DNA of 57,124 bases, from IMG/VR virus record IMGVR_UViG_3300042261_000671, positions 1 to 57,124 of that record; one strand, 5' to 3'. This stretch comes from a virus. Taxonomy: Duplodnaviria > Caudoviricetes. The notes beneath the pieces were generated by a model. It was not told where the DNA came from and ran no database searches. It saw nothing but the letters and a program-made list of their open reading frames with translations. Both the position numbers and the translations under genes were made by a program. Each line of letters opens with the position of its first letter. The first letter of the stretch is position 1. Shown here piece by piece: positions 1,415-20,054 of this stretch.

Positions 1415-2231
1415 AATATTTGAATCGATGTCAGGTTTAACATTCGGTGATGAGATCACTCACGAAGATGATAAAAAAATCGATTGGATAGTAGATGAAA
1501 CCGGTCGAGAAAGAGAAGAATGTATCAAGAGATATTTAGAATTCAACAAAGATGCAATAAGAGCAATAGAAACGATGTTGAATGAAGTCCAGGACGATGA
1601 GGATATAGCCGATTTAATGTCAGATACAAATTTAGACGAAGAAACTTGTAGACAGGCTTATTATGATAATAATAAAAATTATGACGCTGCTTATGATTAT
1701 CTAACAAACGATGGACCAGAAGATGATGGTGGATATGATGATGGAGGAGATGGATATGATGAAGAAGAAGATTACATCAATAGAGAAGATACTTTCGTTA
1801 GAAGAAATACGATCTATAATGATCCTACCATAAACGTTATTAAATCTTTTATATTAAAAGATATATTTGATGAATTCGGTGGATCTAGGAAGAAAACGGT
1901 AGATAAACTTAAAGAACTTGTAATGGGTAAAACTGTAAGAGTAGAAGATAAAGATGGACACGGTGGATATGTTAGTGTAAATGAAGGCGATGATGAAGAA
2001 GTTTGGGATGAAACTTCACCTGTAACAAATGTAATGTCATATGGAGATGACCCTTCAAGATATTTTCGTTTTGATAACGGTAATGGAGATAATCTAGAAT
2101 TACTTATAGATGATAGAATAACTATTATAGAGCATAAAAAAGTGGAACCTAAAAAACAAATAACTACCATTTCAAAATCTGATTCAAAAGATTCAGCTAG
2201 ATGGTGGGAACACGGAAAGGTAGATATATGA
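1398..2231 (+). CDS. Acidic hypothetical protein with two short UBA-like helical repeats
   Basis: MIIKFKIFES; repeats IVDETGREREECIKRY..FNKD / LMSDTNLDEETCRQAY..NNKN resemble UBA/EF-Ts N-terminal three-helix units. Confidence 0.65.
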   Translation: MIIKFKIFESMSGLTFGDEITHEDDKKIDWIVDETGREREECIKRYLEFNKDAIRAIETMLNEVQDDEDIADLMSDTNLDEETCRQAYYDNNKNYDAAYDYLTNDGPEDDGGYDDGGDGYDEEEDYINREDTFVRRNTIYNDPTINVIKSFILKDIFDEFGGSRKKTVDKLKELVMGKTVRVEDKDGHGGYVSVNEGDDEEVWDETSPVTNVMSYGDDPSRYFRFDNGNGDNLELLIDDRITIIEHKKVEPKKQITTISKSDSKDSARWWEHGKVDI

Positions 2232-2882: not shown

Positions 2883-5207
2883 TTAATTTTTACTCTCGGA
2901 TTTGGTAATGTTTTTGGTTAACCAAGCTGCTAAAAGCTCACCTACACCACTCCCACCATTACTTGTGATTAAAGTATCTGGTACGATTTTAACATTTCCT
3001 TGTCCAATCTTTTCGGCAATCTGGACCTGGATAACACCCTCATTACCGATAGCTTGCTTCTGTTTCTCATAGGCTTCAGCAGTTGCGGTTCCTTTTGCAA
3101 AGATTGCTGTACCTTCAGCTTTACCCACAGCTTCGATACCTGCTGCAATACCTTCCTGTTTCAACTTTGTTGACTGTCCTTCACCTTCAGCAAGGAGAAC
3201 CGCTTTCTTCTTTTGATTGTCAGCGACCTTAACATCGATTTCGGACTGAACGAGATCCTTCTGCTTTTCAGCTTCTGCAGTGGTCTTTTCCATTGCGATA
3301 CGTGACTGCTGAGCTTTCTGCTGTTCGAAGAACATTGCTTGCTTCTGCTGTGCAATAATTCTTTCAGTCTGTGTTTTCATAAGATCCTCAGGAAGTTGGA
3401 TCTGACAGATAAGAACGCTCACCAATTCAACGTGATACTTTTCGAGTTCTGCTCTTGCTCTGTTTTCAGCCTTCTGCTGCTCTTCATGTCTGTTTTGCAT
3501 GAAGTTCATTGCTGATGTAGCGGAAGCCTGATTTCTGAAGCTGGAGTCAATCATTGGGTGAATAACGTGATCCACCAAATTCTTGATAGAACCAATCTTA
3601 GCTACCATATAAGGTGACTGATCTGGACGAACTCTAATAACAACCTTAACTGAAACTCGAATTTCGAAACCATCATGTGATACGACCTTAAGAGGGTCGA
3701 ATGGTGTATTCTGACTTTCATCCCAGTCAATAGTCTGGTTAGTAGTATCTACAATGTAGGGGATATAAGCTCTACGGTTAAGGTAATAAATACCAGGACC
3801 AGCAACGTCCCTTTGAATTCCTCTAAATCCCTTTGGTACTACGTATCTTTCAATACCAGTATCGAGACGTTTCTCAACACCACCGGCTAAAGTTTCATCT
3901 TCGGTTGGTGTAGCTGTAGGACTAGTGCCGACACCACCACCTTCTTTATTGGCAACTTGTTCAGTCATTTCTTTAACCTGTGGTGGTTCTTCACCAACGT
4001 TAGAAACAACAACAGCGACCTGACCTCTTTCAACGACTGCTACATCATCCAATTCGACACTAAACATCAAAGGATTGATATAATATGTACCTGGACGAAG
4101 AACGTCGAACTGAGGACCACGCTGACCACCATTAGCCAAGAAAGCTGTGACATCTTGGAAATTATTATGTCCTGTTACAGATTTAGCAACGTATTCTGTT
4201 TCTGGCAGAGGCTGACCGTCGCGGGCGACAACGATACCAACTTTCTTATCAGGAATAATAACCGTTTCTTTAACCTCAACCTTAAATAAGGCAGTATTGA
4301 TACGATATTTACCTGGAAGAAGAATACTAGTCTGAGGACCTTTTTCACCACCTTTATCTAAGAAGAACCTTCCATTCTGGAAATTATCATGCCCTTCAAT
4401 AGCTTTGGCTAAAAGCCTTCCTTCTGCAATAGGTTTACCATCCTGAGAAGTTACAATACCAATCTGCCCCTTTTCAATAACGGTAATCTTAACAGGAGTT
4501 ACCTTGAACAAGGCAGTATTGATACGATAAGTTCCCGGAGGAAGTGTTTGAATCTGAGGACCTTTTTCACCACCATTAGCTAAGAAAGCTGCACCATCTT
4601 GGAATAAATCGCATTCAACGACTTTACCAAAGATTCTACCCGCTGGTACTGGGCTACCGTCAATAGCTTCAACGACTCCAACTTCGTCCTCTTTAATGAC
4701 AGTCTGTTTAACTGTCTTTACAGTGAAAAGCAACGGATTAATACGGTAACCTCCAGTTCTTGTTTCCTTATCTGTGGCATAACCACCAGGAGGAATAATA
4801 CCAAGTTGGATACCTTTTTCTCCACCGTTCTTCAAAAATGCTTCACCATCCTGGAATAAATTACATTCCACTGGGCGAGCAAAGATTTTACCCGATGGAA
4901 CAGGATTACCGTCGTTAGACTGCACTAATCCAATTTCATCAGGACCGATGATCACGAACGGGAAAGCTCTCCTCTTATAAATAAAAGGAGGAATGAAGGT
5001 CAAACCAGGTCCTTTTACTCTAGCCTGAACCCCAATCTCGTTCGTCATAGCAAAAACTCTGTCTTTTGGCATCTGTTTACCAATCCATCGTCTTTCTAAT
5101 GTTTTAATTTCCCTACCACCAACATTCAGTATAGAACTGAAAACGATGATCAAAAGAAAAATCGCAAGGAGACTATATCCTGCGATTGTCAAAATTAAAC
5201 TTACCAT
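2883..5207 (-). CDS. SPFH/Band 7 (flotillin-like) membrane protein with four internal repeats
   Basis: N-terminal TM helix; four repeats of G.V...DG.P....F.....F...GG..G.Q....PG; SPFH core (SHDGFEIRVSV..IDSSFRNQA); C-terminal Ala/Glu-rich coiled coil. Confidence 0.9.
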   Translation of the reverse strand: MVSLILTIAGYSLLAIFLLIIVFSSILNVGGREIKTLERRWIGKQMPKDRVFAMTNEIGVQARVKGPGLTFIPPFIYKRRAFPFVIIGPDEIGLVQSNDGNPVPSGKIFARPVECNLFQDGEAFLKNGGEKGIQLGIIPPGGYATDKETRTGGYRINPLLFTVKTVKQTVIKEDEVGVVEAIDGSPVPAGRIFGKVVECDLFQDGAAFLANGGEKGPQIQTLPPGTYRINTALFKVTPVKITVIEKGQIGIVTSQDGKPIAEGRLLAKAIEGHDNFQNGRFFLDKGGEKGPQTSILLPGKYRINTALFKVEVKETVIIPDKKVGIVVARDGQPLPETEYVAKSVTGHNNFQDVTAFLANGGQRGPQFDVLRPGTYYINPLMFSVELDDVAVVERGQVAVVVSNVGEEPPQVKEMTEQVANKEGGGVGTSPTATPTEDETLAGGVEKRLDTGIERYVVPKGFRGIQRDVAGPGIYYLNRRAYIPYIVDTTNQTIDWDESQNTPFDPLKVVSHDGFEIRVSVKVVIRVRPDQSPYMVAKIGSIKNLVDHVIHPMIDSSFRNQASATSAMNFMQNRHEEQQKAENRARAELEKYHVELVSVLICQIQLPEDLMKTQTERIIAQQKQAMFFEQQKAQQSRIAMEKTTAEAEKQKDLVQSEIDVKVADNQKKKAVLLAEGEGQSTKLKQEGIAAGIEAVGKAEGTAIFAKGTATAEAYEKQKQAIGNEGVIQVQIAEKIGQGNVKIVPDTLITSNGGSGVGELLAAWLTKNITKSESKN

Positions 5208-5362
5208 TTGTTTGTTGTATTAGATATTGCCTACTCTTTTTACCATTTTCGACGTCCTGGTTTTTTCGATATTTTACTACTTCTTATAGTCATGAAATCG
5301 AAAAAAGTTTGAACTTTTTTCGGAAATTTTAAACTCAAAAATTATATTTAATATATAAATTT

Positions 5363-13015: not shown

Positions 13016-13333
13016 ATGAACAATTTGAAAACATATGAAGAATATAATATAGAGATAGATCCTTATGGTGAAGAGTTCTGGGATGATGAAAACTTAATAT
13101 TAGTTGATTGGAACACAGAAATAGAGATCGGAGACGAAGTTTACATAAGATATGAGAGAACAGACGATGTAAAATATCTTGGAGAAATTATAAAAATAGA
13201 GAATAAAAAAATTCGTTCATTAACAGGAATGCCAGATTATTTTGATATGACATACACATTAAGAGTTGGTAACGATACAAGAGAAATGGATATGGGAGAA
13301 TTAATAAGATATAAAGCTAAAATAAAAAAATAA
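13016..13333 (+). CDS. Hypothetical SH3/KOW-like protein with N-terminal tag and DPYGEEFW
   Basis: MNNLKTYEE, IDPYGEEFWD, IEIGDEVYI..GEIIKI. Confidence 0.7.
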   Translation: MNNLKTYEEYNIEIDPYGEEFWDDENLILVDWNTEIEIGDEVYIRYERTDDVKYLGEIIKIENKKIRSLTGMPDYFDMTYTLRVGNDTREMDMGELIRYKAKIKK

Positions 13334-13352
13334 AATGGTAATATTTAAAAAT

Positions 13353-13385
13353 AAAAAAACCAGACCTTTTGAGTCTGGTTTTTTT
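13353..13385. terminator. Bidirectional intrinsic terminator
   Basis: A-run, CCAGAC-cttttga-GTCTGG, T-run. Confidence 0.9.
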
Positions 13386-14445
13386 GTTCCCCTACCTTCA
13401 CACCAGTCTTCCTCCTGGTCGACTTTCGTCTTATCGGGCGCCAAATAGGGCTGTCAGAGGTTCACTTTGTAACTTGACATTCGTAACCGTTACCAGTTAC
13501 AAGATAAGGGATTGTGTACTCACATATGTTGGTGGGACTACTTGCCTCTTAGCGACTTCGCTCGGACTTTCTGAAGGTCCTTCTGCTAATCAACCAATCA
13601 TAGTTGATGAAAAAAAGAAAAAAATAATTTGATGAGACTCCTGACTACTCATAATCCTCGGATTTCATCTACCATTATTCACCCACGTTCCACAGATGGT
13701 GATCGGCCACTGTGTTTTACCTTCGTCAGACACCTTACGGTGCAGACACATCAGTGAACGGGAGGTCCTTTCCTCCAACCAGATACAGCCATCAGCATAT
13801 ATACATGCGATTTGTCTGGTTCTTACGTCACTCGGGGTTGACCAACCCCGGCTATTTCAGGTTTATGGTACGAAATCTGTAACACCTGCTCCACAGGCTT
13901 TTCAGTCTGGGCTACATTGCGTTAGGGGCTGGCGACCCCTTCATTCCGCCACAAATTATTTTTTCAATCTTTCAAAGAACTTTATGAGCACTTATGGATA
14001 GTGAAGCCCTTATTCACAGTGAGGGTCGGGTGAAGGTCTAGTATATAGAGACACCTTATACCACACTGACATCAATTTTCAGATCAATATTCTACGAACT
14101 CCCTGAAATCGTCTATCCATATATCAAAGAACTTAATTTGATTCTGTGAGATTCTGTCAAATTTCTTCGGATACCTACTGGTGGGTTGAAAAGTTATCTC
14201 GCCTTTCAGTATTCAGTCAGTCTGTGGACTGATAAAATTTTGTTTATCTCTAATTTGATGATACAAAGATACGTCAAATTCCCGACATAAAAAAATTTTC
14301 TGATGAAAAAAATACGATGTTAATAGTAACAGCTGATATATGTTTCATTATCAATTTAAATGCGAAGGAACCGCAGCCTCACTTTCCTCACATACTATCA
14401 CGGGCGACTGCACCTGACCCTTTATTATAACACCGAATATCTTAC
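13386..14445 (-). ncRNA. Cluster of putative structured non-coding RNAs (family unassigned)
   Basis: Raised GC, no credible ORF, many hairpins including GNRA loops on the minus strand, long-range closing stems, three boxA-like motifs, promoter at 14264-14271 and terminator at 13353-13385. Confidence 0.7.
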
Positions 14446-14460
14446 AGATTCAAAGAACTT
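13971..14460 (-). promoter_or_regulatory. Three boxA-like antitermination motifs (AAGTTCTTTGA) at about 13971-13982, 14124-14134 and 14449-14460
   Basis: Identical tcaaagaactt on the + strand three times, each just upstream (minus sense) of a folded element; resembles rrn boxA GTTCTTTG. Confidence 0.6.
14264..14271 (-). promoter_or_regulatory. Bacteroidota -7 promoter element driving the ncRNA locus
   Basis: Reverse complement is TATCTTTG(TA). Confidence 0.6.
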
Positions 14461-14540
14461 TCTAAATCGTCAATAAATAACTGATTTATGTATATTATAT
14501 TCCCAAAAAATCGCGTTGTTTTAAAAATCGTCGAACTTTT

Positions 14541-15380
14541 TTATTCTACCTCTAATCTCTTCTCCAACATCTGAATACATATCTTATTGACATCAAATAC
14601 TATATAATTCCTTTTCAATTCTTTTGCTGCCACCGCTGTTGTGCCACTACCAACAAAATAATCAACTATAGTATCTCCTTCATTTGTTGAAGCTAATATA
14701 CATCTCTTAACTAATTCTTTTGGCTTTTGTGTATTATGTTTAGTTAGTTCATTGTTTGGAGTTTTCTTTGTTTTGGCATAACTTTTAACTTCCTTCATGC
14801 TCCAATATGGGACACACAAATCATCCCACAAATTCCCAGGATGTGTGTATCTAATCTTTTTACCATCTTTAATAAACCAGTCTTTAGGATTACCATTTGC
14901 ATCTTTGTATGGAGCAATAACTTCTTTTTCAACCATAATATCATCAATATTGAATGTATAAGATTTTTCATCCTTTACGGCAAACCATACATCTTCCATC
15001 ATTGATTTCCAATTTCTTTTGGCACCTCTACCTTTATCTCTTTTCCATGTAATTCTATTTATAACATGAAAACCAGCTTCCTCTAAAAGTTCTTGTATTT
15101 TTCCTGAATGTTCCCAAGACATACATATATAAATACTTCCTGTTTTTTTGAGTTGCTTGTATGCTAATTTAAGACATGTTTTTACCCAATTATAATAATC
15201 TGCTTTATTATGCCACTGTTTATCCCAGTGTGATCTATCTCCATTTTCTAAATCTATATTTTCTGATCTATTTCCAGATATGAAATATGGAGGATCTAAA
15301 AAGAACATATCTATGGAGTTGTCCTCAATAAATGTGGGACTATTTTCGAATGATAAATTATAGTATTTGTTTAATTCCAT
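14541..15380 (-). CDS. DNA N6-adenine/N4-cytosine methyltransferase (beta class), orphan
   Basis: DPPY, HNTQKP, DYFVGSGTT. Confidence 0.93.
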   Translation of the reverse strand: MELNKYYNLSFENSPTFIEDNSIDMFFLDPPYFISGNRSENIDLENGDRSHWDKQWHNKADYYNWVKTCLKLAYKQLKKTGSIYICMSWEHSGKIQELLEEAGFHVINRITWKRDKGRGAKRNWKSMMEDVWFAVKDEKSYTFNIDDIMVEKEVIAPYKDANGNPKDWFIKDGKKIRYTHPGNLWDDLCVPYWSMKEVKSYAKTKKTPNNELTKHNTQKPKELVKRCILASTNEGDTIVDYFVGSGTTAVAAKELKRNYIVFDVNKICIQMLEKRLEVE

Positions 15381-15554: not shown

Positions 15555-17819
15555 TTACCACTTCCTCTCAAAAGGATTACGAAGAGATCCAGCCTGTTGA
15601 TTAAACGGAGATACATAAGGTATCGGTTTTAACGTTGGTTTTATTCTTGGATAGAAAGTTTTATTTTTCGTAACAATACCATAATTAATATCAGATTCAG
15701 CTCCTCTCGTATTCAAAAAATTCATCATTACCTGTTTATCCCTATCAGACATAACATAATCCGAATAAGAATCTACTAGATTTTTAAAATCATAATGATC
15801 ATATATAGCAGATAGATTTATTAATGTCATCACACAGTCGTCATTGCCAGTTTCACTTCTAAAAGTTATTTCGCCACTTGAGGTTTCGTGTTTAGAGAAA
15901 GATTTTAACTCTATTATGTTATTTTCATTATGAAGTATCATATTATCTTTTTTTACAGCATCTTGAAAATCTTTCAATAATAATTTCTTATTATGCCCTA
16001 TAAGTAATCCTATCTTTGGTTTAGCGTCTGTTTCTCTATGCTTAAATCTTGAGAATACCGCATCCATAAAATCATTATTATCATTAAAAACATGTCTTAT
16101 ATTGTTCAATAAATCGTTTCCAAGATTCTTATTCATTTCCAAAACTATCTTAACTTTCTCTGGATCAAATATCTCAAAAACAATTAAATATAATACGTGT
16201 GCTATTTCGTTAATAGAATATACATTATTTCTAAATAATCCAATTTGCTCTAACTTAAAAAGATCATACTTATTATTCAGAAACATCTTCTTTCTTTCTA
16301 TTAGTTTTTCATCCTTCATTAATAGTCTAAACATGTTAATAACAGTATAGTCTAATCCTAAACCTTCTGCTAAGTCTATTCCTATTGTTATATAATAATC
16401 CTTTGCTTTTTCTAGTTCAAATAAATCAGGTCTATCTTTTATGAATTTTAAGTTATCGTACGGTAAATTGAATTTTTTCTCAAAACATTCTAAGTGTGGA
16501 GTTTCAAATTCCACTTGTTCATTCATGAAACTTTCAAACATAACACTATCGAATAACAATTTATCGTCTGTTATAAATTGTATTTCAAATTCCTGTTTGA
16601 ACATACTCTCACCACCAATAAGACCGGTTTGTTCTTCTTGCCAGTTTGTAACTCTACATATCTCGGGTAACGGTATTATTTCAGATATTCTTATTTGTCT
16701 TATAGTATCTATGTGACAATTTTCACGTGGAGTTTTTTCATCATTTTCGAAGAACTTTATGAAATACCATAGATCTCCATCTATAACTTTCTTATAAACT
16801 TCATACCCCATTGATATTAATTGTTCTATTACTTCATCTACTGTAACGTTATATTGACGCATTTTATAATCCAGGAAGAATAGTTTAGTATCTCTTCTTC
16901 CTTTTACTTGATGCCAATAAATACGCATGGCTTCATATTTGTTCCATCTTGGATCACTTTTTTCTTTTTCTGCATTTGTAAGCAATTCCCAGAATAAATT
17001 ATATCCATCTGGAGTTGATGTAATAATGATCTTAGAATTTTCGATAGATGATACGGTAGGAACAACAGATCCATAATATGCTCTAATGATAGAGTCTGGG
17101 ATTTTTGCAAATTCGTCTAGATACAACAAGTCAATGGCAAAACCGATAGCTGGTTCTTTAGATCTCGATTGACTCTGTACTCTACTGTTATTTTCAAAAG
17201 ATATTTGCTTCTCATTCCAGTTTGTTACTCCAGTTTTCAAAAAGAATGGGAGCAATTTGTAAATATCTTTTATTTTTCTGATAATTTCCTTTACTGTTTC
17301 TGATTTATTAGCAACTATCATAACACCTTTATCATCATTGAACAATACTAAATGTAATATAACAATAGAAGCAGATACGGTATTTAGGTTTAATATATCA
17401 TTAGCATAATAACTATGTTCGTTTGATAAAATAGACAAATCAAACATAGATACTTTATTTGTTGTCTTATTGATTGATTTAACTTTAGACGGTCCTTTCT
17501 TTGTAAGTACAATATCATTCGTTGTTAAATCTTTGGCGAATTTTATATTATGTCCTTCAGTAAAAATTGCGTGAACGTCAGCACAATTCATTTTTACGTC
17601 ATTCTCTAATTCTAGTTCTTGTATCTTATATGGTTGTGTTAAATTTATTTCATCTATTGGTACAAAACCATAATCGGTTTCAACAGATAAATTATCTAAA
17701 GAGAGTATATTAATAACTTTTTTTAGAGGATCTTCTTCATCAAATTTATTATTTTTATATTCTATTTTCTCAATAAATTCAATGAGTTTGTAAATAACAT
17801 TTCTTAAAAATTTACGCAT
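15555..17819 (-). CDS. terL: Terminase large subunit C-terminal part, fused to the C-half of a split intein (aa 1-146)
   Basis: Extein starts TVSA (end of Walker A); LLYLDEFA Walker B, IIITSTPDG, FKQEFE, GIDLAEG, NDDCVM; preceded by HINT blocks B/F/G. Confidence 0.93.
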   Translation of the reverse strand: MRKFLRNVIYKLIEFIEKIEYKNNKFDEEDPLKKVINILSLDNLSVETDYGFVPIDEINLTQPYKIQELELENDVKMNCADVHAIFTEGHNIKFAKDLTTNDIVLTKKGPSKVKSINKTTNKVSMFDLSILSNEHSYYANDILNLNTVSASIVILHLVLFNDDKGVMIVANKSETVKEIIRKIKDIYKLLPFFLKTGVTNWNEKQISFENNSRVQSQSRSKEPAIGFAIDLLYLDEFAKIPDSIIRAYYGSVVPTVSSIENSKIIITSTPDGYNLFWELLTNAEKEKSDPRWNKYEAMRIYWHQVKGRRDTKLFFLDYKMRQYNVTVDEVIEQLISMGYEVYKKVIDGDLWYFIKFFENDEKTPRENCHIDTIRQIRISEIIPLPEICRVTNWQEEQTGLIGGESMFKQEFEIQFITDDKLLFDSVMFESFMNEQVEFETPHLECFEKKFNLPYDNLKFIKDRPDLFELEKAKDYYITIGIDLAEGLGLDYTVINMFRLLMKDEKLIERKKMFLNNKYDLFKLEQIGLFRNNVYSINEIAHVLYLIVFEIFDPEKVKIVLEMNKNLGNDLLNNIRHVFNDNNDFMDAVFSRFKHRETDAKPKIGLLIGHNKKLLLKDFQDAVKKDNMILHNENNIIELKSFSKHETSSGEITFRSETGNDDCVMTLINLSAIYDHYDFKNLVDSYSDYVMSDRDKQVMMNFLNTRGAESDINYGIVTKNKTFYPRIKPTLKPIPYVSPFNQQAGSLRNPFERKW
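17382..17819 (-). mobile_element. Split intein C-fragment (146 aa, no endonuclease)
   Basis: VETDYGFVPI, CADVH (block B), MFDLSI..HSYYANDILNLN|T (blocks F/G). Confidence 0.88.
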
Positions 17820-18666: not shown

Positions 18667-19449
18667 TTAGCCTCCCTTTTTAACACCTGATAACAAAGCT
18701 ATCAAACTATTTAACATCGGTTTTTTCAAATTCGGTGGTATATTAGAAACCACCGAGAAATTACTATTGCCTGATATTTTAATTTGATTTGCTCCTTCGT
18801 TGAGAGATTTATTTTTCAAAAAATGACCAACGAGTGCATGTACGAATGGTTGAATTTCAAAACCTTTTTCATTATTTCTAATGATGTGAATTTCACTGTT
18901 TTTTTCTGTTAGAAGATACCAGTATTCTTCTTTTGATAAAAGTCTTTTCTCAAACATACTTGTAATTTCAGAATATTTCATATCTGTATAATACACCAAT
19001 CTACCTATAGCTTTGATATTATCTGTAGAACTTCGTTCTATAGTAAGATCCACTTGATTGTCTGGAGTATTCTCTTGTTGACGATTTTCTTCTTCTTCTA
19101 TTATTCTTCTTTTTCTTTGTTGAACTCTTCCAACTGGTTTTTCTTCTTCTGGGGGTTGTTGCTGAACATTTTCTGTAAATCTTCTAAATGTTTTACTTTC
19201 AAAAGATCTATTTTTTGGATAATGCTCAGTAACGTCGTCCATAGTTACTTTTAGTGTTGACCCATTCTTTCCTTTGAGAAGATAATATGATTCAAATACT
19301 GCTGATACTTCGCCTCTTATCTCTTTATTGTTGTAAATGGCAACGACAAGATCTCCAACTTTAATGGGATTCATGTTCTCATTCAAAGGGAACTGATCTA
19401 CCTTAATATTAGAGTGATATATGTTATATAATTTTTCCAAGTCTTCCAT
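18667..19449 (-). CDS. Hypothetical protein with an SH3-like N-terminal domain
   Basis: 260-aa ORF co-oriented in the operon; IKVGDLVVA..GEVSAV. Confidence 0.75.
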   Translation of the reverse strand: MEDLEKLYNIYHSNIKVDQFPLNENMNPIKVGDLVVAIYNNKEIRGEVSAVFESYYLLKGKNGSTLKVTMDDVTEHYPKNRSFESKTFRRFTENVQQQPPEEEKPVGRVQQRKRRIIEEEENRQQENTPDNQVDLTIERSSTDNIKAIGRLVYYTDMKYSEITSMFEKRLLSKEEYWYLLTEKNSEIHIIRNNEKGFEIQPFVHALVGHFLKNKSLNEGANQIKISGNSNFSVVSNIPPNLKKPMLNSLIALLSGVKKGG

Positions 19450-19520
19450 TTTACAAAAATAAAGGTCTATCTGCTTTTAGGTGCATAGATAGACCTAGTT
19501 TATTTATTTTTTCAACAGCT

Positions 19521-20054
19521 TTAGATTTGTCCGCCTTGTACTGGAGGAATCTGCGCTGCAGTCTTCTGTGCTCCTTGTGCTGGATGCGCTTGTGCACCTT
19601 GAGCTCCTTGTGCCCCAGGTTGAGCTGGCATTTGAGCTCCTGGTTGTGCTTGTGGTTGAGCACCAGGTTGTGCTGGCATTTGAGCCTGAACAGGTTGAGT
19701 TTCATCTAAACCTTCAGTGTCCATTCCAGGTTGACCTTGTGCTTGAGCACCGCCTTGTGCTTTTGAATATTGATCTCCCAATATTAAATTAACTGGAAGA
19801 TTTTCGATTGTAACATAGGTGTTTATGATATAATCGGCGATTTCTTCAGCCAATTCAACGTCAGAATAAAACTGTCTAATATTCTTACCACTCTCGTCTT
19901 TTACTTTTTTAGCAAAAGCATTTACAAGTGACATAGGAACATCAATTCTCTTTCTTACTCTATATGTATCGTCAACAGCTTGTACATTTTCAGATAAAGG
20001 ACTGACATTTCTTCTTCCTTGAAATTCACCAAATTCGTATAAATTCTTTGTCAT
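19521..20054 (-). CDS. Hypothetical (probably virion) protein with a Q/A/P/G low-complexity tail
   Basis: AQMPAQPGAQ repeats; late-type promoter upstream. Confidence 0.75.
   Translation of the reverse strand: MTKNLYEFGEFQGRRNVSPLSENVQAVDDTYRVRKRIDVPMSLVNAFAKKVKDESGKNIRQFYSDVELAEEIADYIINTYVTIENLPVNLILGDQYSKAQGGAQAQGQPGMDTEGLDETQPVQAQMPAQPGAQPQAQPGAQMPAQPGAQGAQGAQAHPAQGAQKTAAQIPPVQGGQI

Follow-up and report, generated by a model that had tools for sequence, protein, structure and literature searches.

A noncoding region in a fragment of a huge phage

The stretch of DNA analyzed here (57,124 nt, referred to as the window) is the IMG/VR virus record IMGVR_UViG_3300042261_000671. As CheckV rates this 57-kb record 8% complete, the window is a fragment of a very large phage. 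It contains a 1.2-kb stretch without long open reading frames (ORFs), bordered on one side by a convergent plus-strand ORF ending at 13333 and on the other by a DNA methylase gene (14541-15380, minus strand), which is followed by the gene of the large terminase. We describe a structured RNA from this stretch, named element C (13617-13965, minus strand). It represents a family of structured RNAs from huge phages of Bacteroidota that has robust support, and in which two loops keep self-complementary centers through covariation.

The RNA region coincides with a GC island (44% at 13601-14000 and 37% at 13201-13600; most nearby bins about 23-31%) in a genome with an overall GC content of about 29%. 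A blastn search of GenBank phages with 961 nt of the window recovered LR756501 and LR756503 only, which belong to a 735-kb uncultured phage (80.8% identity over 80% of the query), and did not recover the Lak phages. The LR756501 genome is placed in the 'Mahaphage' clade together with the Lak megaphages, with Bacteroidetes as predicted host (PMC7162821).

An earlier reading of the letters alone, the original prediction, had proposed a single multi-hairpin RNA of about 580 nt at 13386-13965 in minus sense. The hairpins that it listed are present and the region is a real, minus-strand one; however, it is not one unit but consists of two modules, element C and element D. The original prediction had looked to folding energy and to conserved pairing in homologues for support. 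The whole stretch folded better than shuffled sequences (z -4.02 on the minus and -4.10 on the plus strand, 20 shuffles each), as did element C (z -2.93, 0/100 shuffles as good), but element D alone did not stand out (z -1.44, 16/200 shuffles as good). Folding energy gives no orientation, because both strands beat the shuffles equally. Conserved pairing was found for element C in 41 sequences, whereas it is poorly supported for element D.

The element C family and its predicted fold

To find homologues we used baits of exact sequence. A 26-mer of element C, matched exactly, returned 7 IMG/VR loci and a bait from another part of it 15 loci, while a gapped core bait returned 86 metagenome loci and 12 loci from metagenome-assembled genomes (MAGs). 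The independent motif GTAGTCAGGA was present within 300 nt in 96 of 127 core matches (93 complete, 59 unique). Using a Lak-like copy as query, the element was found once each in 15 Prevotella Lak phage records; LR756501 likewise carries a single copy. From the collection we built alignment A3, consisting of 41 representatives below 93% identity, and a partial covariance model, R1, which covers only the 5' 203 nt of the family. R1 matched 80 of the 98 bait-selected loci from metagenomes and MAGs. Of these matches 79 scored 100-206 bits, and the remaining one, cut by the locus end, scored 62 bits; the other 18 loci, including 9 of the 12 MAG loci, carry the core bait and are not family members by this model. 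In the window R1 gave a single match, element C, at 170 bits. The alignments showed that element C alone is shared widely among the homologues, with a length of about 330-350 nt across the family; locus L131 carries a divergent core. No conserved reading frame runs across the homologues, the longest stop-free stretch having a median of 70 and a minimum of 40 amino acids in elements of about 330 nt.

RNAalifold predicted 49 pairs on A3, 36 of them with compensatory change. The refined model contains 61 pairs in 12 helices, with 98.7% of cells paired in the 41 sequences. Forty-five of the 61 pairs change on both sides, and none of 500 shuffles reached the observed values; when the partners were slid by 1-3 columns, pairing fell to 36-45%. 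As shown by this covariation, element C is predicted to adopt a closed multi-helix fold with P1, two GAAUAA-type internal loops, a GNRA hairpin and the long-range helices P4 and P5. The RNA strand is the minus strand, as had been proposed, because some pairs are near-invariant G-U pairs (G-U in 33-41 of 41 sequences) that would be A-C on the opposite strand, and because all tRNA genes near the homologues lie on the strand of the element. The parts of element C in the window are as follows:

13617-13965, minus strand: element C, structured RNA of ~350 nt, family member by covariation and R1 match
13952-13965, minus strand: P1 5' strand GAAAAAAUAAUUUG, pairs with 13617-13631
13919-13949, minus strand: P2/P2a domain, GAAUGAA internal loop, hairpin GGGGU/GCCCC, UAA; manA-like module
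13930-13933, minus strand: loop L2a, GCCA, pseudoknot PK1 with UGGC at 13788-13791
13894-13909, minus strand: P3 hairpin, GAAA (GNRA) tetraloop within the conserved CUGAAAAG; in the R1 consensus a stem closing GAAA
13830-13852, minus strand: P6 hairpin, CGGGGUUG/CAACCCCG, carries loop L6
13839-13844, minus strand: loop L6 of P6, UGGUCA, self-complementary center, candidate homotypic kissing loop
13777-13821, minus strand: P7 long hairpin, AACCAGA/UCUGGUU, 5/7 pairs covary
13761-13776, minus strand: P8 hairpin, GGAGG/CCUCC, 4/5 pairs covary, 100% paired
13720-13754, minus strand: hairpin inserted in P9a, GUAA tetraloop, complete in the window and LR756501 only
13691-13714, minus strand: P9 hairpin, CACAGUG/CAUCUGUG, loop L9 GCCGAUCAC, 7/7 pairs covary
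13681-13685 and 13672-13675, minus strand: 3' strands of the long-range helices P5 and P4 (block 13661-13685)
13676-13680, minus strand: second GAAUA internal loop, between the P5 and P4 3' strands
13661-13666, minus strand: P4 extension GAAAUC, pairs with 13872-13877
13632-13652, minus strand: P10 hairpin, 11-nt loop L10 UAGUCAGGAGU, 4/5 stem pairs covary

Element C is closed by pairing of its own 5' and 3' ends. For the P1 end duplexes the cognate mean was -12.1 kcal/mol, compared to -6.7 kcal/mol for 465 non-cognate pairs (n = 59, p = 4e-19), and the P4 extension gave a similar picture (cognate -8.4, non-cognate -5.4 kcal/mol, p = 2e-13). The hairpins AGGGG/CCCCU (P2a), CGGGGUUG/CAACCCCG (P6), AACCAGA/UCUGGUU (P7) and GGAGG/CCUCC (P8), all of them read from the single sequence in the original prediction, are borne out by covariation in the 41 homologues. 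CACUG/CAGUG was not retained, as CAGUG belongs to P9 in the family. CACC-GUAA-GGUG, the hairpin inserted in P9a, is compensated in LR756501 (CCCC-GCAA-GGGG) but is a clade-specific insert and not a family-wide feature: 38 of the 41 A3 sequences have no insert, and locus L007 has a shorter one (about 9 nt) at the same place. The internal loop of P2/P2a, GAAUGAA in the window, has the family consensus GAAUAAU, and the P8 loop, UAAUCAAUC in the family and AAAGGA in the window, resembles the loop of the manA terminal hairpin. A GNRA loop closes P3 in 38/41 sequences (GAAA, within YUGAAAA, in 36, GCAA in 1 and GUAA in 1; 3 unmatched), and this motif never served as a bait.

The 3' internal strand of P7, CUGA-UGGC (13788-13795), is the partner of L2a and, tentatively, of L10. 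As shown by covariation, this single-stranded segment inside P7 is predicted to base-pair with loop L2a (PK1): all four pairs covary, 95.7% of cells are paired, and at least eight combinations occur (GAUG/CAUC, GCCA/UGGC, GCCG/CGGC, AGCA/UGCU, GAUA/UAUC, GACA/UGUC, GAAG/CUUC and GCUA/UAGC). An alternative pairing of L2a (UUGAU) with L8 (AUCAA) was dropped, since sequences with the L2a UCGCCAG lack a complement in L8 and the partner is the P7 internal strand. A second pseudoknot, PK2, is tentatively proposed between CUGA, just 5' of the PK1 strand, and the complementary UCAG in loop L10. The pair 13641-13795 was GC in 38, UA in 6, CG in 2 and GA in 4 of 50 sequences, and the other three pairs are invariant; the local helix P7b (UCG/UGA), also invariant, competes with PK2. 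An all-against-all covariation screen was swamped by G/U-rich columns, and the later tests were targeted ones only.

Loop L10 looks invariant because its sequence served as a search bait. Members collected without the L10 bait gave the consensus UARUCAnnnAU, with the variants UAAUCAUUA, UAAUCACUA and UAGUCAUGA. The heptamer AGUAGUC, pointed out in the original prediction as occurring once in each element, lies in L10 in its element C copy and varies in these members; its element D copy is not conserved.

Two loops stay self-complementary while their sequences change

The centers of loops L6 and L9 were examined in A3, from which all palindrome counts were taken; a second MAFFT alignment was unusable for L9, as its window-like rows were shifted by one column. 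The central tetramer of L6 was self-complementary in 41/41 sequences (GGCC 22, GCGC 7, GUAC 6, GGCU 3, GGUC 2 and GAUC 1) and that of L9 in 40/41 (AGCU 21, AAUU 9, GAUC 7, CAUG 2 and GGCU 1; UGCU fails), the window carrying GAUC in L9. Each loop thereby passes through four different Watson-Crick palindromes across the family. Among 228 variable four-column segments of A3, L6 and L9 ranked first and second (1.00 and 0.98; median 0.10). The two inner positions were paired in 41/41 and 41/41 sequences for L6 and in 40/41 and 41/41 for L9, with covariation of the central neighboring bases (L6: GC 25, CG 7, UA 6, GU 2, AU 1; L9: GC 23, AU 18). Neither for loop pairing nor for covariation scores did any of 500 shuffles reach the observed values of L6 and L9. 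As adjacent nucleotides cannot pair within one molecule, the kept palindromes suggest pairing with a second copy of the same loop, and the pattern points to element C copies pairing with each other through L6 and L9. The test for multimerization put forward in the original prediction was a sensible one.

A comparable loop is known from the dimerization initiation site (DIS) of HIV-1, a kissing loop with a self-complementary center that varies between lineages yet stays palindromic and mediates RNA homodimers. Element C differs in having two such loops in one RNA of a DNA phage, and its dimerization is a predicted one. With moderate confidence we read element C as a trans-acting structured RNA gene of Mahaphage/Lak-type huge phages, the product of which would self-assemble through two homotypic kissing loops.

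Several points weigh against this reading. The next-ranked segments of A3 reach 0.83-0.88 by way of G-U-rich UUGG/GGUU strings, with 0-1 Watson-Crick palindromes. Each kissing core is just 4 bp long, the flanking pair that would extend it from 4 to 6 bp is kept in 28/41 (L6) and 33/41 (L9) sequences, and the window's own L6 (GGUC) needs two G-U pairs. Covariation is blind to whether PK1 and PK2 form within or between molecules. The homologues were gathered with exact baits, so divergent members such as L131 were missed, and part of the invariance seen in the core GUGACGUAAGAA..CAAAUCG and in GUAGUCAGGA stems from this choice of baits. Finally, the palindromic loops might serve to bind a dimeric protein instead.

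Taken further, this last point would make element C a monomeric ribonucleoprotein scaffold, in which the palindromic loops, L10, the GAAUAA loops and the GNRA loop would be bound by protein, for instance by a dimeric one of phage or host origin. Highly conserved single-stranded motifs are indeed present, palindromes suit dimeric binders, and the RNA is confined to a single phage clade, in which numerous proteins related to translation are encoded (PMC7162821). We nevertheless consider the scaffold rather unlikely: the loop sequence varies freely (GGCC, GCGC, GUAC, GAUC) and only self-complementarity is kept, which fits base pairing better. Moreover, the neighbors are a DNA methylase and a terminase in the window and tRNA genes elsewhere, no dedicated search for a conserved neighboring protein gene having been made. 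Self-assembly through L6 and L9 is the reading that we retain in the following.

Comparison with manA, ROOL, GOLLD and other known RNAs

All 4227 Rfam 15 models were scanned against the window, with extra scans up to E = 10 on 13200-14600 and 13620-14000. At the gathering threshold nothing matched in the RNA region, in line with the original statement that no family could be assigned; a DUF805b motif elsewhere was the only match in the window. At E up to 10 the RNA region gave terminator-like sRNA and snoRNA noise only. The ROOL, GOLLD, OLE, raiA and group I/II intron models, which we take to be included in Rfam 15, had no match up to E = 10 in the element C/D region, nor had the RNase P, tmRNA and small-ribozyme models. 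The proposed ROOL/OLE class thus found no backing, and we saw no sign of a ribozyme.

Of the known families manA (RF01745), which the original prediction had not considered, comes closest. It was proposed as a riboswitch candidate of marine phages by Weinberg et al. in 2010 (PMC2864571), and a preprint of July 2026 reports decamers and a 60-mer cage of manA RNAs, assembled by way of kissing loops (bioRxiv 10.64898/2026.07.01.735769). Among the Rfam families only manA gave a signal, in the relatives L016 (28.7 bits) and L024 (24.6 bits). In the reverse direction, with filters off, the best R1 match in cyanophage S-CREM1 1500-2200 (701 nt) was the annotated manA RNA (12.6 bits, rough E ~5e-4), the coordinates of which are also given in Table 4 of PMC9964418. 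This weak match is collinear and runs end to end over model positions 1-203.

Element C and manA share several traits. Both are phage-borne, and manA of S-CREM1 lies directly between tRNA genes, exactly between tRNA-Leu and tRNA-Asn. The 5' module GUGnCUGAAUAA-hairpin-UAAGG is common to both: the element C family consensus, UUUUGnCnGAAUAAU-hairpin-AUAAGG, aligns to the manA consensus, and the P2/P2a domain of L016 aligns to the manA string 'GUGaCUGAAUAA-hairpin-UAAgG'; the module of the window is degenerate (GUGGCGGAAUGAA...UAACGC). In both RNAs a long hairpin comes after a first hairpin; in element C the loop of the first pairs with an internal strand on the 3' side of the second (PK1), and manA may have a counterpart of this pseudoknot. 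In S-CREM1 manA a GGUC/GACC complementarity was seen by eye in one sequence, and the legend of the 2010 manA figure marks a 'pseudoknot?' (PMC2864571). The terminal hairpin GG-UA..AAUCC and the long hairpin align as well.

The differences are equally clear. manA measures about 190-215 nt and is built of a P1 around the 5' module, a junction of three hairpins, a long hairpin and a terminal hairpin, whereas element C measures about 330-350 nt and adds a second GAAUAA module, P4, P5, P3 with its GNRA loop, P9 and P10. The contacts described in the preprint are between different loops (L5-L7', L8-L9'), whereas the candidates in element C are homotypic palindromic loops. The hosts differ too, manA belonging to cyanophages and Photobacterium and element C to huge phages of Bacteroidota. 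Kinship with manA is called into question by further observations: the two scores of the relatives lie below the gathering score of 55.2, where a true manA scores 96.6 bits with the same model, and matches occurred in 2 of 9 copy-holding loci searched (E up to 0.1); the window's own copy had no manA match at E up to 10; R1 with default filters did not find manA; and the CAUCC strand that closes P1 in manA pairs downstream in element C (P9a), where a new P1 joins the ends. By score, size and topology element C is not a member of manA.

ROOL and GOLLD, 'often near tRNA islands', assemble into homo-oligomeric cages of RNA only, in which kissing loops and A-minor contacts hold the copies together, and covariation reveals these intermolecular contacts (Kretsch et al., 2025, PMC12286853). 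Like element C they are large ornate phage or prophage RNAs. They are longer, about 580 and 800 nt compared to 350 nt, show no sequence or structure match to element C, and come mainly from Firmicutes and Actinobacteria phages and marine samples.

Element D, other modules and the transcription unit

Downstream of element C on the minus strand lies element D, and promoter-like and terminator-like signals frame the two:

13973-13980, minus strand: GTTCTTTG box, about 8 nt upstream of the element C 5' end, candidate Bacteroidota-type -7 promoter element
13386-13600, minus strand: element D, clade-specific 3' module, conserved core about 13386-13512
13353-13385, minus strand: intrinsic terminator, 14-bp stem followed by a U run, ends the noncoding unit; stem compensated in LR756501

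We likened the GTTCTTTG box to what we take to be the Bacteroidota -7 consensus, TAnnTTTG. In three unrelated contigs (L070, L101 and L035) element C likewise has a similar box, TCTTTGAAA, ahead of it. In the 1.2-kb noncoding stretch four nnTCTTTG boxes occur on the minus strand, at 14458, 14271 (a perfect TATCTTTG), 14132 and 13980, with a conserved module behind each. The stretch gives the impression of a series of noncoding RNA genes, each under its own promoter. In the window the only terminator-like site called downstream of C on the minus strand is the strong one at 13353-13385, with none between C and D, and the two are probably co-transcribed there.

Element D was found in LR756501 and two IMG/VR contigs only, with a divergent form in L132. 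A bait from its nested hairpin returned 0 IMG/VR loci, and a second D bait returned the same two known contigs only. Among the three close relatives, conservation of its 3' core stands at about 90%. Seven of its 46 predicted pairs are compensated among 3 sequences, three of them in the terminator stem. Of the D hairpins named in the original prediction, one, ACCAG/CUGGU, shows compensation (ACCUG/CAGGU) in the 3 homologues, and two others, UUGUAAC/GUUACAA and GAC..GUC, persist in them; the 5' half of D, to which GGAC/GUCC and AGCG/CGCU belong, is not conserved. Element D is a lineage-specific 3' module, and support for it is weak. In L132, a 152,665-bp IMG/VR contig from a close relative, the box, the first P1 bases, a short hairpin, a D-like module and the terminator follow one another (reverse strand, about 2080-2350 of the locus) without element C, and a contig from the RNA library of run X4 shows the same C-less join, 13506 to 13996. 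As both carry a D-like module without C, C and D are separable modules.

This bears on the proposal that C and D work together as a single ROOL/OLE-class RNA some 580 nt long. Their likely co-transcription and the conserved 3' core of D would suit it, but we judge it unlikely. Element C closes on itself through P1, and no covariation links it to D; C occurs without D in the Lak phages and dozens of contigs, and the D-like module occurs behind the same promoter-like box without C. In addition, the ROOL, GOLLD, OLE and raiA models found nothing at E up to 10, and 16 of 200 shuffled sequences fold as well as D does. Element C is accordingly treated here as an RNA of its own.

Two further modules were seen in the noncoding stretch. 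Element A (14183-14271, minus strand) carries the perfect TATCTTTG box at 14264-14271, with TTGACG upstream, followed by about 80 conserved nt (CAGUCCACAGACUGACUGAAUACUGAAAGGCGAGAUAAC...). It is common to LR756501, L007, L131 and L132, the latter two of which were added by an element A bait, has no Rfam match, and probably represents an independent gene for a small RNA. A conserved module of about 100 nt (14326-14424, minus strand; GUGAUAGUAUGUGAGGAAAGUGAG...GCAUUUAAAUUG...) is located between element A and the methylase gene; in LR756501, L131 and L132 this module sits elsewhere in the noncoding array.

Element C among tRNA genes

The surroundings of element C were analyzed for 61 unique copies in fetched loci of about 0.6 to 7 kb. 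In 47/61 copies at least one tRNA gene was present in the locus, on the same strand in every case. A tRNA gene ends at most 100 nt upstream in 22/61, starts at most 150 nt downstream in 20/61 and does both in 16/61 copies, and the flanking tRNA genes are often just a few bases away from the P1 ends. Because of this close flanking, we infer that the RNA would be released by tRNA-end processing. The family usually lies in or beside tRNA islands, but the window's own copy does not: ARAGORN found no tRNA or tmRNA gene in the window, which counts against our reading. In the tRNA array beside the element C copy of L016, a 7.9-kb viral contig, a group I intron was found (1689-1900, plus strand; 54.6 bits, gathering score 50). 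Sub-threshold matches to YrlA, a Y RNA-like family, at 35-39 bits (gathering score 69) occurred in the tRNA arrays of element C at L003 3520-3634, L005 3585-3697 and L024 1029-1105; these may be tRNA-like RNAs or odd tRNAs.

A hint of expression comes from RNA-library contigs of relatives. Two metatranscriptome runs from different studies contain contigs with word depths of 87 and 105 over element C, compared to a depth of 5 for the single RNA-library contig covering the flanks; these contigs come from relatives 80-95% alike and are no proof of transcription, a further point to be set against our reading. RNA run X11, which belongs to the same study as the likely source sample, yielded nothing, and runs X4 and X6 do not cover all of D and A/B; neither result speaks for absence.

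The position between tRNA genes, together with the complex conserved fold, the pseudoknots and the near-invariant junction nucleotides, might also suit a catalytic RNA linked to tRNA arrays, either self-cleaving or tRNA-processing. This is very unlikely, as the RNase P, intron and small-ribozyme families were unmatched at E up to 10, processing of the flanking tRNAs would already account for release, and no conserved cleavage-site signature was seen. A cis-regulatory riboswitch, which Weinberg et al. in 2010 rated manA likely to be on account of 5'-UTR positions (PMC2864571), is highly improbable for element C: in the window the terminator of its unit abuts a gene that runs the opposite way, and its own strand has no ORF downstream; tRNA genes flank both sides in 16 of the 61 copies, P1 joins the ends, and no expression platform was seen. 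That the conservation reflects a protein-coding or DNA-level element is hardly credible, for although a plus-strand ORF of 101 amino acids (13696-14001) runs antisense to element C, terminase and methylase genes adjoin as they might for a packaging or methylation site, and a hairpin with a palindromic loop is a palindrome at the DNA level as well, the homologues share no open frame, the strand-specific G-U pairs and compensatory changes fit RNA, and the terminase/methylase context is missing at other loci.

Other features of the window

The DUF805b RNA motif (5228-5262, minus strand) scored 37.8 bits, exceeding the gathering score, and lies directly upstream of a gene of 774 amino acids (2883-5207, minus strand) with an SPFH/Band 7 domain, within a GC island of 40-43% compared to 29% for the genome. 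The large terminase (15555-17819, minus strand, 754 amino acids) showed a weak sub-threshold Intein_splicing match (E 0.006, residues 37-249) and may hold an intein or insertion. A second local GC rise (36-40% at 19201-20000) lies inside or adjoins the minus-strand ORFs 18667-19449 and 19521-20054.

A model for element C and its meaning

In our reading of element C as a self-assembling RNA, the RNA would in most phages be transcribed within tRNA arrays and released by tRNA-end processing; in the window it would be transcribed from its own promoter-like box together with module D up to the terminator at 13353-13385. Copies would then bind each other via L6 and L9 to form dimers and, probably, larger assemblies that are closed or chain-like, as reported for manA, ROOL and GOLLD. 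Element C may be a distant, enlarged relative of manA RNA, and judging by its context its role is most likely tied to tRNA or translation during infection.

No earlier description of the family was found in literature searches or in a motif search of the supplement of PMC10690425 (excluding files 1, 2 and 4), which is no proof of absence. RNA-only cages are a very recent finding (ROOL and GOLLD, and manA in the 2026 preprint), and all of them lie at phage tRNA islands. With the family described here this group gains a well-supported member, from phages that are the largest known and whose hosts belong to a different phylum; the family also suggests that the manA family is much broader than the Rfam model captures. 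Its sequence signature is directly testable, as loops that stay palindromic despite change predict pairing between copies. Element C is short enough for cryo-EM and compensatory-mutation tests and occurs in genomes that have names (15 Lak phage records). Close relatives that naturally have or lack it could help to find its function.

Going further, element C might be a third kind of cage- or lattice-forming phage tRNA-island RNA, in the largest phages (Lak and the 735-kb Mahaphage lineage), in which two two-fold kissing interfaces (L6 and L9) and a splint strand gathering two further loops would build a defined higher-order RNA-only particle, and which would share an ancestor with cyanophage manA. 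We regard this extension as possible but doubtful. If it were true, manA-like assemblies would be a general feature of phage translation takeover across bacterial phyla.

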